Part shown: positions 5,797 to 47,027 of the stretch, in pieces
Numbering within the stretch: position 1 is the first letter of the stretch
Layout of the letters: each line of letters begins with the position of its first letter
Program-made: the position numbers and the translations under genes
Notes under the pieces: model-generated
Databases searched by the model: none
What the model was told of the DNA's origin: nothing
Seen by the model: only the letters and a program-made list of their open reading frames with translations
DNA from: Patescibacteria group bacterium
GTDB lineage: Bacteria; Patescibacteriota; Patescibacteriia; 2-12-FULL-57-11
Assembly: GCA_004297205.1 (NCBI GenBank)
Contig: SCUL01000002.1
Span: forward strand, 722,893 to 786,892
Direction of reading: 5' to 3'
Length of the DNA stretch: 64,000 nt

Positions 5797-6207
5797 ATGT
5801 TCAAGCCTGCTGCACGCCCTGAATCCGCCAACAACGACACGGTTATTGCCGCCGGCGTCAAAGTCGAGGGTGATTTCACGTCGGCCGGCAACATCATCAT
5901 CGACGGCGAAGTCTCCGGTACGCTGCGCACCGACATGGATCTCGTGGTCGGCCCCGAAGCCAAGATCACGGCGAACGTCACGGCCCGCAATGCCCGCATC
6001 GCCGGCGAAGTCCACGGAAACCTGTCGGTCAGCGAGCGCGCCGAACTTTCGGCCACGGCCAAGATCTCCGGCGACATCCAGGCGCGCATCCTCGTGATGG
6101 AGGCGGGCGCGGTGTTGAACGGCCGCTGCGCCATGGGCGCCGAGGCGGCCCCGGTCCATATCCCGACCCCCGTTCTGCGCAATCGTCCCGTGAAAGCGGA
6201 ATCTTGA
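5797..6207 (+). CDS. bactofilin family cytoskeletal protein
   Basis: Repetitive beta-helical signature (IIIDGEVSGTL, ITANVTARNARIAGEVHGNLSV) typical of DUF583/bactofilin. Start moved to internal ATG 5797 because the longer ORF overlaps the kinase gene. Confidence 0.7.
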   Translation: MFKPAARPESANNDTVIAAGVKVEGDFTSAGNIIIDGEVSGTLRTDMDLVVGPEAKITANVTARNARIAGEVHGNLSVSERAELSATAKISGDIQARILVMEAGAVLNGRCAMGAEAAPVHIPTPVLRNRPVKAES

Positions 6208-6980
6208 TGTACCAATACGTCTACGACGCCGCACTCTCCGACAAGCGGCATCATCTGGCGCTGACGGCCATCGAGAACCGGCTCACCGACCTGGGCATCC
6301 AGGGAAGGATCGACCGGCTCTCCTTGTTTAAGAATGTCGCCGAGTCCATCGAGGAAGGCGTCCGGCGCGGCGTGACCACGGTCGTGGCGGTCGGCAACGA
6401 CGACACCGTGAAAAAGGTCATGGACGCCGTGCCGCAGTTCGCCGTGACGATGGGCGTGATTCCGATCGGCAAACCCAGCAAGATCGCCCGGCTCTTGGGC
6501 GTGCCCGAGGGCATCGCCGCCTGCGACGTGCTCAGCGCCCGGCTCACCCAGACGCTTGACATCGGGCGCGTGAACGGCCATCATTTCCTCGCCGCGCTGA
6601 GCGTGCCGGCCGGGGCGGTGACCTTGGACTGCGAAGGGCAGTACCGCGTCACGGCGCCGCCGCGCGGACCGGTGCACGTCTGCAACATGACGCCGCTCGA
6701 GACCCTGCTCGACGAAGACGCCGCGCCGATCCACCAGGCGGACCCCTCCGACGGCCTGCTGGAGGCGGTCATCCCGGCACGCCGGGGCATCTTCCGGAGT
6801 GGCGAGGGCGGCAGCAAGACCGTGCTCAACCTGCGGCGCCTCACGATCCGCGCCGAGCGGCCGTTCACCTACGTCGTGGACGGACGCAGTCACTCGGCAC
6901 AGCGCGCCGAAGTAGATGTCCTGCCGGGACGGCTGAAAGTCATCGTCGGGCGGAATCGATTGTTTCGAGTTCCTACGTAA
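6204..6980 (+). CDS. diacylglycerol-kinase-catalytic-domain family lipid kinase (YegS-like), possibly degenerate
   Basis: DAGK_cat-like N-terminus with VVAVGNDDTVKKVMDAV in place of the canonical GGDGT loop. Has an ATGA overlap with the bactofilin stop. Confidence 0.5.
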   Translation: MMYQYVYDAALSDKRHHLALTAIENRLTDLGIQGRIDRLSLFKNVAESIEEGVRRGVTTVVAVGNDDTVKKVMDAVPQFAVTMGVIPIGKPSKIARLLGVPEGIAACDVLSARLTQTLDIGRVNGHHFLAALSVPAGAVTLDCEGQYRVTAPPRGPVHVCNMTPLETLLDEDAAPIHQADPSDGLLEAVIPARRGIFRSGEGGSKTVLNLRRLTIRAERPFTYVVDGRSHSAQRAEVDVLPGRLKVIVGRNRLFRVPT

Positions 6981-6984
6981 ATAC

Positions 6985-7043
6985 GGGCCGGTGGCGGAAC
7001 TGGTATACCTGCCTGCCGGCAGGCAGGCGCGCACGTTTGAGGG
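6985..7043 (+). repeat. duplicated 5' half (nt 1 to about 38) of the downstream tRNA-Leu(GAG), interrupted by a 20-nt perfect palindrome
   Basis: GGGCCGGTGGCGGAACTGGTATAC + CCTGCCTGCCGGCAGGCAGG + CGCGCACGTTTGAGGG matches tRNA positions 1-24 and 25-38 of the intact gene at 7279-7363. The copy ends in the anticodon loop, 3 nt before the GIY-YIG ATG. Confidence 0.8.
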
Positions 7044-7046
7044 AAC

Positions 7047-7277
7047 ATGCCTTACTTCGTCTACGCCCTGCAAAGTGAGAAGGACGGCCGTCTCTATATC
7101 GGCATGACGAGAGACGTGCAGAAACGTTTGTCGCAGCACAATGCGGGTAAGACCCAATCGACTCGCTTCTATCGTCCCTACGTCCTTCTGCGTTTTGCCG
7201 AGGTTCCGAATCGCCTAGCGGCGCGGGCACTCGAAAAAGAGTGGAAGTCGGGGTCTGGGAGAGCGTCCATCAAATAA
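7047..7277 (+). CDS. small GIY-YIG nuclease family protein (YhbQ/COG2827-like)
   Basis: 76 aa with FVYAL...GRLYIGMTRDVQKRLSQHN matching the GIY...YIG...R...H(N) catalytic core. The stop codon is 1 nt before tRNA-Leu. Confidence 0.8.
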   Translation: MPYFVYALQSEKDGRLYIGMTRDVQKRLSQHNAGKTQSTRFYRPYVLLRFAEVPNRLAARALEKEWKSGSGRASIK

Positions 7278-7278
7278 T

Positions 7279-7363
7279 GGGCCGGTGGCGGAACTGGTAT
7301 ACGCGCACGTTTGAGGGGCGTGTGCCGCAAGGCTTGAGGGTTCGAGTCCCTCTCGGCCCACCA
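7279..7363 (+). tRNA. tRNA-Leu(GAG), type II with long variable arm, CCA encoded
   Basis: Manual fold: acceptor GGGCCGG/TCGGCCC, anticodon stem CACGT/GCGTG, loop TTGAGGG (anticodon GAG), variable arm GCC-GCAA-GGC, T-arm GAGGG-TTCGAGT-CCCTC. Length 85 nt. Confidence 0.85.
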
Positions 7364-7372
7364 GAAAAGGCG

Positions 7373-7402
7373 TCTCATGCGAGGCGTCTTTTCTTTTTGC
7401 GG
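7373..7402 (+). terminator. putative terminator after tRNA-Leu
   Basis: CGTCTC-ATGC-GAGGCG hairpin (one G:U pair) followed by TCTTTTCTTTTT. Confidence 0.35.
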
Positions 7403-7462
7403 CGTCCGGACGTTGCCTGAGGTGCGCCGCGGGAGTATCCTGAACGTGGAGGACGCGGGCCT

Positions 7463-7538
7463 GGGCTCGTAGCTCAGCGGTTAGAGCGTCTCGTTTACAC
7501 CGAGAAGGTCCTCCGTTCGAATCGGAGCGGGCCCACCA
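7463..7538 (+). tRNA. tRNA-Val(TAC), CCA encoded
   Basis: Manual fold: acceptor GGGCTCG/CGGGCCC, D-arm GCTC..GAGC, anticodon stem TCTCG/CGAGA, loop TTTACAC (anticodon TAC), T-arm CTCCG-TTCGAAT-CGGAG. Length 76 nt. Confidence 0.85.
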
Positions 7539-7553
7539 GAAACATTTCCTTTC

Positions 7554-7793
7554 ATGCGCTATCTCTTCGGCATCCTCGGCATCGTGCTCGGCATGATCCT
7601 CGTCATCAAGTCGGAGTGGTTCTTCACCTTCTTCGGCCGCATCGATTTCGCCGACAAATATCTCGGCACCGAGGGCGGGACGCGCCTCATGTATAAGCTG
7701 ATCGGCATCCTGTTCGTCCTCCTGTCGCTGCTCTACATGACCGGCGGCATCGAAAGTTTCCTGAAAGCGGTCTTCATCCCGGGCGGCGTGTGA
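7554..7793 (+). CDS. small hypothetical membrane protein (2 TM)
   Basis: 79 aa with two hydrophobic helices; no recognisable family. Confidence 0.4.
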   Translation: MRYLFGILGIVLGMILVIKSEWFFTFFGRIDFADKYLGTEGGTRLMYKLIGILFVLLSLLYMTGGIESFLKAVFIPGGV

Positions 7794-8335
7794 CGCCTAT
7801 GTACATCCCATCGGGCAGCGAGCTGCTGAATCCCGTCACCATCCTCACCGAGGCCGGCGTGCGCGAAGGCATGCACGTCGCGGATTTGGGCTGCGGCGCC
7901 ACGGGACACATCGTCTTTCCGGCATCGCACATGGTCGGCAAGAACGGCATCGTCTACGGCGTCGACATCCTGAAGTCGGCGCTCTCCGGCGTGGAGTCGC
8001 GCGCAAAACTTGAGGGCGTCGCCAACGTCCAGACCGTCTGGAGCGACATTGAAGTCTACGGCGCAACAAAGGTGCCGGAGGCCTCGCTCGACTTGGCCAC
8101 GCTCGTCAACAACCGCCCCAGCCCGGCGATGATGCGCGAGACGGTCCGTCTCATCAAACCCGGCGGCACGCTGGTGGTCGTCGACTGGGTCGTGACCGCC
8201 ACCCCGTTCGGTCCTGCCAGCAAGGAACGCATCGATACCGAGACGGTGAAGCGGATGGCTGCCGATTTGCGCCTGACGCTGACCAAGGAATTCCAGGCGG
8301 GGCAGTATCACTACGGGGTCATCTTTAAGAAATAG
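7790..8335 (+). CDS. class I SAM-dependent methyltransferase
   Basis: Motif I VADLGCGATG and a post-I acidic residue pattern. 181 aa; start overlaps the preceding stop. Confidence 0.7.
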   Translation: MTPMYIPSGSELLNPVTILTEAGVREGMHVADLGCGATGHIVFPASHMVGKNGIVYGVDILKSALSGVESRAKLEGVANVQTVWSDIEVYGATKVPEASLDLATLVNNRPSPAMMRETVRLIKPGGTLVVVDWVVTATPFGPASKERIDTETVKRMAADLRLTLTKEFQAGQYHYGVIFKK

Positions 8336-45602: not shown

Positions 45603-47027
45603 ATGGCAGAAAACGGCCAAAAACAAGCCAAAAACGATGATGTCGTGATTCCGGTCAAATCCGGTGATCACGTCAGCCTGGTTTCCTTGGGAAACAAGGC
45701 TTTGGCGAAGTCCGTGCCGGCTGCAGCAGGGGACGTAGACAAGGCCGTCTCCCTGCTCGTCCATCCGGACTGGGATGAGGAAAAACGCGCCCGGCTGAAA
45801 CAGCTCGCGCTGTCCTTTTTTTCCGACGTCCGTGACCGCCTGGAACTGCGGGAGGACCTGCAATCGGCCTGGGAGCGGGGCGGCTTGGGCGTTGATGCCG
45901 ACGAGGCGGGGTATATGGTCGGCGTGCTTGGTGCGGTGCGCGACGGGGGATCTCTTCCGGTGCGCCCGGCATCGAAGGTTTCCATGATGCAGCAGCCTTC
46001 CGTGACGACGGCACCGGCCGCGCCTGCCATTGGAGTGAATATTGCCCCTTCAGCCCCAGCGCAGAAAGCGCCGGCTCCCGCCGCTCCGGCACAGATGGTG
46101 GTTGCCCGCTCCGAATTCGCTGGCAAGCGACGCGAGGAGATTTTTGCGGTGCTGGCCAAAGAGATCGTCGACGAGGTCAAACCGCAGCTGGCCGATCCGG
46201 CATTGCATTCCCGGCTGGAAGCGCTGATCGCCACGCGGTTCCGCGGCGTCCGGGATGCCAATGAGGTGCGCGCCCACATGAAGCGCGACGCGGCGCAGGG
46301 CGGCCTCAGCATGACGCCGGCAGAGATCGAGCGTGTCATGACCGTGGTCGAGGACCGCTTCGCCAAAATTTCGAAGGAGCTCCACGCCCAGGAGAAGGGA
46401 TTGGTGATGGAGGGGCTCAAACAGGAGTCCTCCGCCGGCCGCGCCCAGAAGCAGGGGGCGAGCAGCGATCTTCGGGAGTACGAATCCAATCAATGGTACG
46501 AGAAGCGTTTCGAGCGCCAGCCGCAGACGCCGCCTCCGCCCGCACCCAAAGCGCCGCCGGTGCAGGCACCCCCTCCCGCTCCCCCTTCTGCAAGCCTGCC
46601 TGCCGGCAGGCAGGGGGGAGGGAAGCCGCCTGCGGAAGTCGCGGTCGCCGCGCCGCCGGTGCAGGCACCCCGGCCGACCATGCAGGACGCCGAATACCGT
46701 CCCCGGCTGCTCGGCCCCGTTGAGGAGCTCCGCAGCATGACGCTCGACGACTTCCGACGCCTGGCGCGCGATCCTAAGGAAGCGGCGCGCCGCATCCAGG
46801 ATAAAATCCGGCTGCTCGAGGAGGAGGACTACACCCAGCGCGCTGCGGCCATCGCCGCCTGGCGGGGGTCCGTGCCGGTCAAAACGTATCTGGCCGTCAC
46901 GCGCACCATGTTCGACCAGGGAATCGGTCCGGAACAGGCCGTTGCGGCGCAAGGTACGGGCCCGGACGCGCTGACGCTCGAGGAATACAATGCTATAATG
47001 GAGTTGCAGAATTCCTTGAGATACTAG
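45603..47027 (+). CDS. hypothetical protein with Pro/Ala-rich low-complexity region; contains the 20-nt palindrome in-frame
   Basis: 474 aa. PPPPAPKAPPVQAPPPAPPSASLPAGRQGGGKPPAEVAVAAPPVQAPRP. The CCTGCCTGCCGGCAGGCAGG palindrome at 46595-46614 encodes LPAGRQ. Confidence 0.45.
   Translation: MAENGQKQAKNDDVVIPVKSGDHVSLVSLGNKALAKSVPAAAGDVDKAVSLLVHPDWDEEKRARLKQLALSFFSDVRDRLELREDLQSAWERGGLGVDADEAGYMVGVLGAVRDGGSLPVRPASKVSMMQQPSVTTAPAAPAIGVNIAPSAPAQKAPAPAAPAQMVVARSEFAGKRREEIFAVLAKEIVDEVKPQLADPALHSRLEALIATRFRGVRDANEVRAHMKRDAAQGGLSMTPAEIERVMTVVEDRFAKISKELHAQEKGLVMEGLKQESSAGRAQKQGASSDLREYESNQWYEKRFERQPQTPPPPAPKAPPVQAPPPAPPSASLPAGRQGGGKPPAEVAVAAPPVQAPRPTMQDAEYRPRLLGPVEELRSMTLDDFRRLARDPKEAARRIQDKIRLLEEEDYTQRAAAIAAWRGSVPVKTYLAVTRTMFDQGIGPEQAVAAQGTGPDALTLEEYNAIMELQNSLRY

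Follow-up and report, generated by a model that had tools for sequence, protein, structure and literature searches.

Among described systems, the nearest counterpart of the element reported here appears to be a family of small GIY-YIG nucleases, the Ssn proteins, that act together with dispersed hairpin repeats. The element lies in a transfer RNA (tRNA) gene of a Patescibacteria group bacterium (GenBank assembly GCA_004297205.1, contig SCUL01000002.1, positions 722,893 to 786,892 of the forward strand), and the whole of this 64-kilobase (kb) stretch is referred to below as the window. The locus consists of a dead 5' portion of tRNA-Leu(GAG), interrupted by the perfect 20-base-pair (bp) palindrome CCTGCCTGCCGGCAGGCAGG (called PAL throughout), followed by a GIY-YIG nuclease gene of 76 amino acids (aa) and by an intact tRNA-Leu(GAG) gene, an arrangement that amounts to a 294-bp insertion with respect to related genomes.

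Ssn nucleases are single-domain GIY-YIG proteins of ~94 aa with catalytic residues Y6, Y17 and E64, as mutated in SsnA; they bind their hairpin repeat solely as single-stranded DNA and cut a few nucleotides (nt) upstream of it, and the repeat flanks 71% of their genes (Chenal et al. 2025, PMC11893778). For SsnA of Neisseria meningitidis, which is accompanied by NTS/SRM repeats, the same authors proposed an insertion sequence (IS)-like nature (PMC11893778). Compared against this published family description, the window protein is likewise a single-domain GIY-YIG enzyme of fewer than 100 aa, with Tyr6, Tyr17 and Glu63/64 and no DNA-binding module, and its gene adjoins a conserved repeat that can form a hairpin and has further copies elsewhere in the genome, with a conserved stem and a variable loop. 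PAL differs, however, in its sequence, in being a perfect 20-bp palindrome and in its invariance across phyla, where Ssn repeats are lineage-specific; most genes have it on one side only, in contrast to the NTS-ssnA-NTS order. The cassette, moreover, resides in tRNA genes with a dead and a live tRNA copy, whereas the word "tRNA" is never mentioned in the Ssn description (PMC11893778).

If these likenesses are a guide, an Ssn nuclease and its hairpin repeat are the closest model for how the cassette works. The link with tRNA genes recalls SegB, a free-standing homing endonuclease of the GIY-YIG type that phages T4 and T6 encode in a tRNA gene cluster; it cleaves tRNA genes and has homologues statistically associated with tRNAs (PMC2330249, PMC13096335). 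In phage T6, SegB activity leads to preferential inheritance and to recombination-dependent tandem amplification of segB plus tRNA (PMC13096335). Both systems place a GIY-YIG nuclease gene among or next to tRNA genes, and presence/absence polymorphism at a conserved target gene is a further feature shared with Seg/I-TevI homing enzymes. SegB, in contrast, is larger, belongs to the I-TevI/Seg homing lineage, acts on double-stranded DNA and is a phage rather than a chromosomal gene; a hairpin repeat, a split pseudo-tRNA and a regenerated tRNA copy have not been described for it.

The best sequence and structure matches of the window protein are standalone Slx1-like/UPF0213 proteins (COG2827, YhbQ; PDB 1zg2, 1ywl), which share its minimal GIY-YIG domain. 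A very recent insertion of an Slx1-like/UPF0213 domain into the HsdR gene MCA0838 has been noted (Dunin-Horkawicz et al. 2006, PMC1564403), and it parallels an in-frame HsdS insertion described below (locus L066); no function, repeat or tRNA association is assigned to standalone UPF0213 proteins in that paper (PMC1564403). Eukaryotic Slx1 differs in its dependence on Slx4 and a RING domain and in its substrate, branched double-stranded DNA. The combination of a short dispersed hairpin with one enzyme that recognizes it in single-stranded DNA is also found in REP/REPIN-RAYT systems and in IS200/IS605 peel-and-paste elements, where solo repeats again far outnumber enzyme-linked ones. The enzyme in those systems is, however, an HUH/Y1 transposase with covalent intermediates, and PAL is only 20 bp; transposition driven by a GIY-YIG enzyme would need host repair, because such a hydrolase cannot religate. 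Similarly, tRNA-targeting integrative elements and group I introns in anticodon loops target a tRNA gene and restore its function, but they do so by attachment-site (att) overlap or by splicing, whereas the cassette does so by gene duplication.

A full-text literature search found no paper on the PAL 20-mer, and no description of an architecture combining pseudo-tRNA, hairpin, nuclease gene and intact tRNA was found in the literature searched, with subscription journals outside it. The locus is apparently an undescribed, cross-phylum variant of the hairpin-plus-minimal-GIY-YIG theme.

Architecture of the tRNA-Leu locus

The locus is defined by exact direct repeats at an offset of 294 nt, in which positions 6985-7008 equal 7279-7302 (24 nt) and positions 7028-7043 equal 7302-7317 (16 nt). 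Combined, the two blocks reproduce tRNA positions 1-39, anticodon loop included, with 39/39 identity, a match that excludes chance similarity. Fragment A (Table 1) spans the 5' strand of the acceptor stem, the D-stem and most of the D-loop, and fragment B spans the 3' strand of the D-stem, the 5' strand of the anticodon stem and the entire anticodon loop; PAL adds a net 20 nt exactly to the D-loop, with no target duplication relative to the intact gene. The nuclease open reading frame (ORF) begins with an ATG 3 nt past the half-copy, and its stop codon ends 1 nt short of the intact tRNA. A GAGGG at the end of fragment B, 3 nt before the ATG, is a possible Shine-Dalgarno-like element.

Much of this layout had been anticipated in a sequence-only reading of the window, which described ~38 nt of the tRNA 5' part repeated 294 nt upstream, a 76-aa ORF with the same short distances to its two neighbors, and a 20-nt palindrome inserted in the half-copy. 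The repeat search found the repeat to be exact and 39 nt long, the ORF coordinates were confirmed, and the palindrome is perfect. The same reading looked to tRNA-calling programs to recover both the intact tRNA and the fragment: the former is called by ARAGORN and Rfam, and the half-copy is called as a tRNA by neither. An Rfam scan of 6500-7900 at E ≤ 1 returned two tRNAs only, with no intron, riboswitch or tRNA-like family found over the half-copy.

Table 1. Features of the cassette locus, its upstream neighbor and the second palindrome in the window.
Feature	Position	Strand	Basis
Fragment A, dead copy of tRNA-Leu(GAG) positions 1-23	6985..7007	+	Repeat identical to 7279-7302; flank as in empty sites
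PAL CCTGCCTGCCGGCAGGCAGG, in D-loop of dead copy	7008..7027	.	Repeat search; same 20-mer upstream of homologous genes
Fragment B, dead copy of tRNA positions 24-39	7028..7043	+	Repeat identical to 7302-7317
76-aa single-domain GIY-YIG nuclease gene, Slx1/UPF0213 lineage, Ssn-like	7047..7277	+	Pfam PF01541, alignment, AlphaFold/Foldseek
Intact tRNA-Leu(GAG)	7279..7363	+	ARAGORN; Rfam tRNA 46.3 bits; identical to L207 and L213 tRNAs
DAGK-family kinase gene, upstream neighbor	6204-6980		
Second, solo PAL in window	46595..46614	.	Inside Pro-rich linker of ORF 45603-47027

Empty sites in related genomes

Comparison with relatives identifies the extra sequence as an insertion. In L207-L210, L211, L213 and L215 (L-numbers denote the DNA stretches compared), the DAGK gene is followed by an intact tRNA-Leu(GAG), with no half-tRNA, PAL or nuclease gene between them. 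The DAGK proteins of three empty-site lineages are 94%, 84% and 81% identical to that of the window, and the tRNA in these relatives begins 4-12 nt past the DAGK stop codon. The empty-site relatives come from Hainich groundwater, and by its DAGK gene the window organism is placed near Uhrbacteria within Patescibacteria. Multiple alignment with the empty sites opens one clean gap of 294 nt, corresponding to 294 extra bases in the window. The intact window tRNA, identical to tRNA-Leu of L207 and L213, carries the native 3' flank, and the dead fragment holds the native 5' position of the gene, 4 nt past the DAGK stop codon and behind the same upstream flank as in L207, L213 and L211. Because the orthologous loci of relatives are empty, the arrangement results from insertion and is not a fixed ancestral duplication, and the cassette is almost certainly a mobile insertion. 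The sequence-only reading, to which this layout looked like the mark left at the anticodon loop of a tRNA gene by insertion or by copy-repair, had proposed to examine orthologous loci. It is supported by the absence of the cassette from three related lineages, in which tRNA-Leu directly follows the DAGK gene.

The 76-aa GIY-YIG protein

The nuclease matches the Pfam GIY-YIG family (PF01541) over residues 3-71 with E = 8.5e-15 and a score of 55.3 bits against a cut-off of 22.6, and residues Y6, Y17, G19, R27, H31, N32 and E63 are invariant in an alignment of seven sequences. The protein ends 5 residues past the GIY-YIG domain and has no C-terminal DNA-binding region. A phmmer search of the PDB returned 1zg2 (5e-5) and 1ywl (5e-3), the UPF0213 proteins BH0048 and EF2693, and then SLX1, with UvrC and I-TevI absent among the matches. 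The AlphaFold2 model (predicted local distance difference test score, pLDDT, 91.8) has the element order beta-beta-alpha-alpha-beta-alpha-alpha and a GIY-YIG fold. Foldseek relates this model to BH0048 and Slx1 with probability 1.00, TMq of 0.70-0.74 and 30-34% identity, as compared with TMq of 0.52-0.58 and 15-18% identity for I-TevI and UvrC. A solved Ssn structure was not among the PDB matches of the sequence or the structure search. Judged by its sequence and predicted fold, the protein is a minimal nuclease of the Slx1/UPF0213 lineage and not of the classical homing-endonuclease lineage. The NCBIfam model grpIintron_endo scores 16.4 bits against a cut-off of 56; NCBIfam, PADLOC and PHROGs yielded weak partial GIY-YIG matches only, and tblastn of the protein against PLSDB plasmids gave no match.

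The ratio of nonsynonymous to synonymous divergence (dN/dS) is 0.08 versus L001 and 0.15 versus L002, and such values of ~0.1 at a dS of ~0.7 argue that the protein is functional. The family to which it belongs comprises 15,069 clusters at 50% identity with E ≤ 1e-3, or 3,194 with E ≤ 1e-10, and the median length of the homologues is 80 aa. In 22 of the 149 top representatives the gene call reads through PAL, giving rise to the peptides LPAGRQ, PACRQA and CLPAGR.

The 56-nt leader, made up of fragment A, PAL, fragment B and a spacer, differs from its L001 counterpart at 3/56 positions, as against a gene dS of ~0.7, and fragment A co-varies with the adjacent tRNA allele. These few changes, together with the co-variation, indicate either constraint on the leader or gene conversion that keeps it matched to the tRNA. 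Transcription of the cassette probably starts at the tRNA promoter of the host, in which case the A-PAL-B segment would form a 5' leader and the downstream tRNA would be freed by normal tRNA processing. A role of the tRNA half as leader or promoter context, raised earlier as an alternative to insertion, is compatible with the data and gains some support from the contrast between leader and gene divergence.

Recurrence of the module at other tRNA genes

The tripartite architecture recurs at no fewer than 13 tRNA isoacceptors and in mirror orientation. The closest homologues, L001 and L002, share 93% and 86% aa identity with the window protein and are arranged likewise at tRNA-Leu(GAG), in different genomic surroundings. 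The more distant L003-L005 (54-59% identity, low-GC genomes) repeat the design at other tRNAs, and the D-loop of their upstream fragment holds the identical 20-mer. A census of 80 homologue loci from metagenomes gives the frequency of each arrangement. At 55 of the 80, a tRNA 5' fragment ahead of the gene holds a PAL-type hairpin at a distance of ≤130 nt, and at 50 of these 55 the matching intact tRNA follows the gene. Twelve loci have the mirror arrangement, in which the intact tRNA precedes the gene, and 9 of the 12 carry PAL-type hairpins in the pseudo-copy downstream of the gene, where they occupy D, anticodon or T loops; only 4/80 loci have neither hairpin nor tRNA. Two PAL-type hairpins in 161 kb of distal flank set the background at 0.012 per kb, relative to which the 130 nt upstream of GIY-YIG genes are enriched ~400-fold. 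The palindrome is not incidental; it is a component of a module recurring across phyla. The frequent proximity of small YhbQ/COG2827-type genes to tRNAs, asserted in the sequence-only reading, holds for this subfamily, with a tRNA 5-150 nt downstream in 58/80 homologues and just upstream in 12/80.

To the left of PAL, upstream fragments usually match positions 1-21/22 of the adjacent tRNA, often with 22/22 identity. PAL is inserted after GG(A/T)TA of the D-loop, between positions 21 and 22, or earlier in the D-loop in class II tRNAs. To its right, the tRNA sequence runs on to about positions 31-40, and the ATG lies 5-15 nt further on. The recurrent geometry is PAL, then 11-21 nt of host sequence, then the ORF, with PAL at a near-fixed distance of 17-42 nt before the start of the protein match. 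Both PAL and ORF fall at loop positions of the tRNA cloverleaf, the D-loop here and the anticodon or T loop elsewhere.

The downstream intact tRNAs of the census represent 13 isoacceptors, mostly Arg, with Asn, Ser, Lys, Leu and Pro also present, and other loci supply Leu(GAG) (the window and L124), Gly(TCC) (L112) and Val(TAC) (L036). Clade-specific tRNA targeting was considered and rejected: elements with proteins 60-72% identical occupy different isoacceptors, which means that the target changes over time. Two loci give a further clue to the intact copy. In L005, the upstream half and the 3' half past the intact tRNA belong to one tRNA-Arg(TCT) allele and the intact copy between them is another; in L002, a GGTCC-type tRNA-Leu stands beside the 3' remnant of a GGGCC-type resident gene. 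Because the intact tRNA at both loci is another allele than the split resident, the cassette can carry a whole tRNA gene as cargo. Such 3' remnants, or extra PAL-disrupted copies, are present in 7/51 loci.

The module also occurs outside tRNA genes. At positions 3861-4145 of L066, from a metagenome-assembled genome (MAG) of Thermodesulfobacteriota, the central repeat of HsdS, a type I restriction gene, has received an in-frame insert in which 21 nt of host sequence separate PAL from a GIY-YIG domain. The 713-codon frame is still open; the conserved central repeat is hit, and a duplication is absent.

Several individual loci show further variation. The tRNA-Leu that follows the cassette in L001 (289-372) has a 3' acceptor strand, CCTGCCC, that pairs poorly with the 5' GGTCCGG, and it may be degenerate. 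In a decayed cassette in L089 (4330-4480, a Saccharibacteria MAG), a PAL-bearing tRNA-Ser fragment is followed by no more of a GIY-YIG ORF than its first 24 nt (ATGTTCTATGTTTATATTCAATGG) and then by an intact tRNA-Ser, and the end of another GIY-YIG-like ORF lies just upstream of it. In L132, L165/L166 and L137 a second conserved hairpin, gcctgtctaccgacaggtagag, is found in tRNA D-loops beside PAL and near GIY-YIG genes, and a PAL variant, CCCTGCCTGTCGGCAGACAGGG, occupies a T-loop in L177. The contigs of L001, L002, L003, L004, L006, L212 and L214, which come from independent assemblies, end in the tRNA half, at PAL or just past the nuclease gene, which suggests that strain heterogeneity or repeat structure breaks assemblies at cassette loci.

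PAL beyond the cassette

A scan for exact PAL in one genome per species found it in at least 120 genome stretches from about ten phyla. Its carriers include Patescibacteria, Bacteroidota (cultured isolates among them), Omnitrophota, Planctomycetota, Gamma- and Deltaproteobacteria, Bdellovibrionales, Thermodesulfovibrionales, Chloroflexi, Verrucomicrobia, Elusimicrobia and Ignavibacteria, and exact copies are present in 35 further stretches of viral contigs. Some contigs hold multiple copies. Isolates with exact PAL include Winogradskyella echinorum KCTC 22026, Flagellimonas yonaguniensis 334s03, Longitalea luteola, Aquiflexum lacus and Agriterribacter humi. About one in ten of the listed genome copies adjoins a GIY-YIG gene of this family, and ~90% are solo, at non-random positions. 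PAL lies in the loop of a pre-existing inverted repeat roughly three times as often as control positions do (stems ≥6 bp: 15% versus 5%) and is also found between short direct repeats more often than controls. For about one-fifth of solo copies a PAL-free copy of the flanks exists nearby, and some PAL copies are nested in others. A target-site duplication was found in none of the tRNA contexts, and a perfect 7-bp direct repeat accompanies PAL at 4/125 sites, all in repetitive DNA.

Variants of PAL retain the outer arms CCTGCCTG/CAGGCAGG, and the center varies or gains 10-17 bases. The predicted PAL hairpin has 8 bp and a CCGG loop, and conservation of the arms around a variable or expanded center fits a hairpin better than a double-stranded dimer site. 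A transposon with 10-bp inverted ends around the gene was rejected, as both PAL halves lie together upstream of the ORF.

The second PAL of the window (Table 1), in the gene of a 474-aa protein, belongs to a 36-nt in-frame insertion relative to orthologue L251 and is flanked by a 22-nt direct repeat (46552, 46651). Comparison with orthologues at the DNA level shows the insertion to be present, in a region too variable for its exact ends to be placed. Orthologues P0128-P0131 of the same ORF have other short linker insertions, with peptides like SPPSQGG...SLPL(A/V)K(G/R)E(P/L)EGV. These look like translated palindromic mini-insertions, and several hairpin families may thus colonize coding linkers.

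Other contexts were observed at single loci. In L099 (850-1150, a Saccharibacteria MAG), PAL lies in a duplicated 3' fragment of 5S rRNA, beside an intact 5S gene and a terminator, and a GIY-YIG gene of the same family is located ~4 kb away. In L097 (1744), L025 (3515), L037 (2251 and 2328) and L073 (1854), PAL lies within hairpins of the form GTCATCCC...GGGAT that resemble the SRM/dRS3 repeats of Ssn nucleases. Among viral contigs, one of 29.5 kb (L236, L243, L244) has six exact PAL copies, L217 and L240 have PAL inside a tRNA-Met-like gene, and in L247 all three parts are present, the tRNA half and PAL as well as the GIY-YIG gene. Phages could act as carriers between phyla.

Proposed mechanism and rival explanations

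On balance, we lean slightly toward a specific mechanism in which a hairpin-plus-nuclease cassette uses the tRNA as portable homology and regenerates the gene that it splits. The 294-bp unit would be a selfish cassette inserted into the resident tRNA-Leu(GAG) gene of a Patescibacteria (Uhrbacteria-related) genome, with three linked parts: PAL in the dead 5' fragment, the 76-aa nuclease gene starting from the end of the anticodon loop, and the complete tRNA copy after the stop codon. Because this complete copy directly follows the nuclease gene, the host keeps a working tRNA gene. The specificity of the nuclease and the mode of transfer we infer from Ssn: the enzyme would recognize the PAL hairpin in single-stranded DNA and nick nearby. 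A single-stranded tRNA gene would fold into a cloverleaf, and PAL and ORF would land in its D, anticodon and T loops, insertion in these loops being what a nuclease acting on a hairpin in single-stranded DNA would produce. The breaks would then stimulate recombination, for which fragment A on the left and the whole tRNA on the right would serve as portable homology arms, so that a chromosome lacking the cassette would acquire the unit PAL-B-ORF-A by copying, at the same highly conserved tRNA gene. A single contiguous insertion of PAL-B-ORF-A is contradicted at L005 and L066, where the segment from PAL to the ORF belongs to the resident gene.

A number of points weigh against this mechanism. 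The pairing of the protein with PAL is drawn from analogy, and a PAL-dependent nuclease would not be expected to cut a PAL-free, empty tRNA gene, so that the first attack is unaccounted for. The left homology arm, fragment A, measures only 21-24 nt, and PAL at sites without flanking homology is not accounted for by the mechanism. A different enzyme could be what moves PAL, given that ~90% of its exact copies adjoin no GIY-YIG gene of this family; and since the L066 insertion in HsdS occurred without duplication, duplication is not intrinsic to insertion. The Ssn SRM consensus HGTCWY...RNCYNB, from which PAL differs, has 0 matches on both strands of the 64-kb window (~1 expected by chance). Folding of the leader as DNA and as RNA gave total energies no better than those of shuffled sequences (z of -0.2 and -0.9, in a GC-rich context). 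Finally, a scan of 6600-7650 for sigma-70 promoters and intrinsic terminators found none, a result that is uninformative for Patescibacteria.

An alternative that we consider unlikely, if the best of the remainder, follows the logic of SegB and I-TevI: a free-standing homing endonuclease would cut the intact double-stranded tRNA gene in the D-loop, repair would proceed from a cassette donor, and PAL would be an immunity patch, abolishing the cleavage site in the 5' fragment left behind. I-TevI has an offset between its cleavage site and its insertion site, and the distance from PAL to the ORF insertion point (14-21 bp) recalls it. Empty and filled alleles both exist, tRNA genes are ideal conserved homing sites, and SegB does cleave tRNA genes (PMC2330249, PMC13096335). 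The window protein is, however, a catalytic domain alone, with no DNA-binding module, and its fold is much nearer to Slx1/UPF0213 (TMq 0.70-0.74) than to I-TevI/UvrC (~0.55). A homing donor would additionally remain cleavable, because its regenerated tRNA is identical to the empty-site tRNA, and solo PAL at many non-tRNA sites is left unexplained.

The preponderance of solo PAL (~90% of copies) is in line with a second alternative, to which we assign marginally less weight, in which PAL is an independent mini-palindrome moved by another enzyme, the GIY-YIG gene is a separate tRNA-targeting selfish gene, and the redundant dead tRNA copy, with its hairpin loops, is a safe landing place. Consistent with such independence, the sites of PAL include a 5S rRNA fragment, coding linkers, terminator-like hairpins and PAL itself, and tRNA pseudo-copies with PAL and no remaining GIY-YIG ORF exist (L010, L036). 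The two components are nevertheless tied together by the ~400-fold enrichment of hairpins in the 130 nt upstream of GIY-YIG genes, by their near-fixed spacing of 17-42 nt before the protein match and by the same geometry at the non-tRNA target in L066. Another recurrent candidate enzyme was not seen, though no systematic survey was made.

Less probable again is a domesticated host system, in which the nuclease and hairpin would restrict or modulate recombination of incoming single-stranded DNA and the tRNA half would be a fossil promoter or leader. A precedent has been proposed for SsnA/NTS in Neisseria (PMC11893778), and the strong purifying selection on the protein and the conserved leader are in keeping with it; selection on the protein is, however, equally expected of an active selfish element. 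Presence/absence polymorphism among relatives whose DAGK proteins are 94% identical argues against domestication, and the decayed copies, truncated ORFs (L089) and tandem or mirror rearrangements look like selfish turnover.

Explanations that require no special element, namely chance tandem duplication, assembly artefact, integrase-type att duplication or a group I intron in the tRNA, have a negligible probability: tRNA genes are common integration sites, tRNA fragments are common and many contigs break at the cassette locus, but an artefact is excluded by the same architecture in independent assemblies (L001, L002 and dozens more), an integrase island by the lack of an integrase, by the 76-aa frame being the sole ORF of the 294-bp insert and by duplication of the 5' rather than the 3' part of the tRNA, and a group I intron by the lack of a ribozyme core in the Rfam scan of 6500-7900 and by the uninterrupted downstream tRNA.

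Implications

If the portable-homology mechanism favored above is correct, the cassette represents a third route by which selfish DNA enters an essential conserved gene, in that it splits the gene and rebuilds a copy next door; the other two routes are splicing, used by introns and inteins, and att-site overlap, used by integrases. It would also provide a biological context, in tRNA genes and cross-phylum mobility, for a very large and almost uncharacterized family of minimal GIY-YIG proteins, and would extend the Ssn principle of nuclease plus hairpin to a different, invariant 20-bp hairpin. The nuclease and PAL could serve as a sequence-specific pair for single-stranded DNA tools. On the practical side, pseudo-tRNA fragments confuse tRNA annotation, read-through of PAL gives false N-terminal extensions, and metagenome assemblies break at these loci.

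A bolder extension of the same mechanism, which we offer tentatively and rather doubt, is that PAL and the 76-aa nuclease constitute the smallest two-part mobile system yet seen in bacteria, with PAL moved in trans and transferred between phyla. PAL would then be a 20-bp non-autonomous "nano-element" that enters hairpin loops of single-stranded DNA, its targets being tRNA cloverleaf loops, 5S rRNA, terminators, other repeats and coding linkers. Its movement would depend on a single-domain GIY-YIG enzyme acting as a hydrolase and on host repair, and the autonomous form, by bringing along or restoring the split tRNA gene, would spare its host. Under this proposal, 100% conservation over about ten phyla would imply ongoing inter-phylum transfer, possibly via phages.

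Neighboring differences

The region on the other side of the intact tRNA also differs among relatives. In L207 (3361-5569) and L213 (3369-5603), a 2.1-kb CHASE4 histidine-kinase gene lies between tRNA-Leu and tRNA-Val. The corresponding interval of the window (7364-7462) is wholly without this gene, and the sequence just upstream of tRNA-Val is conserved.

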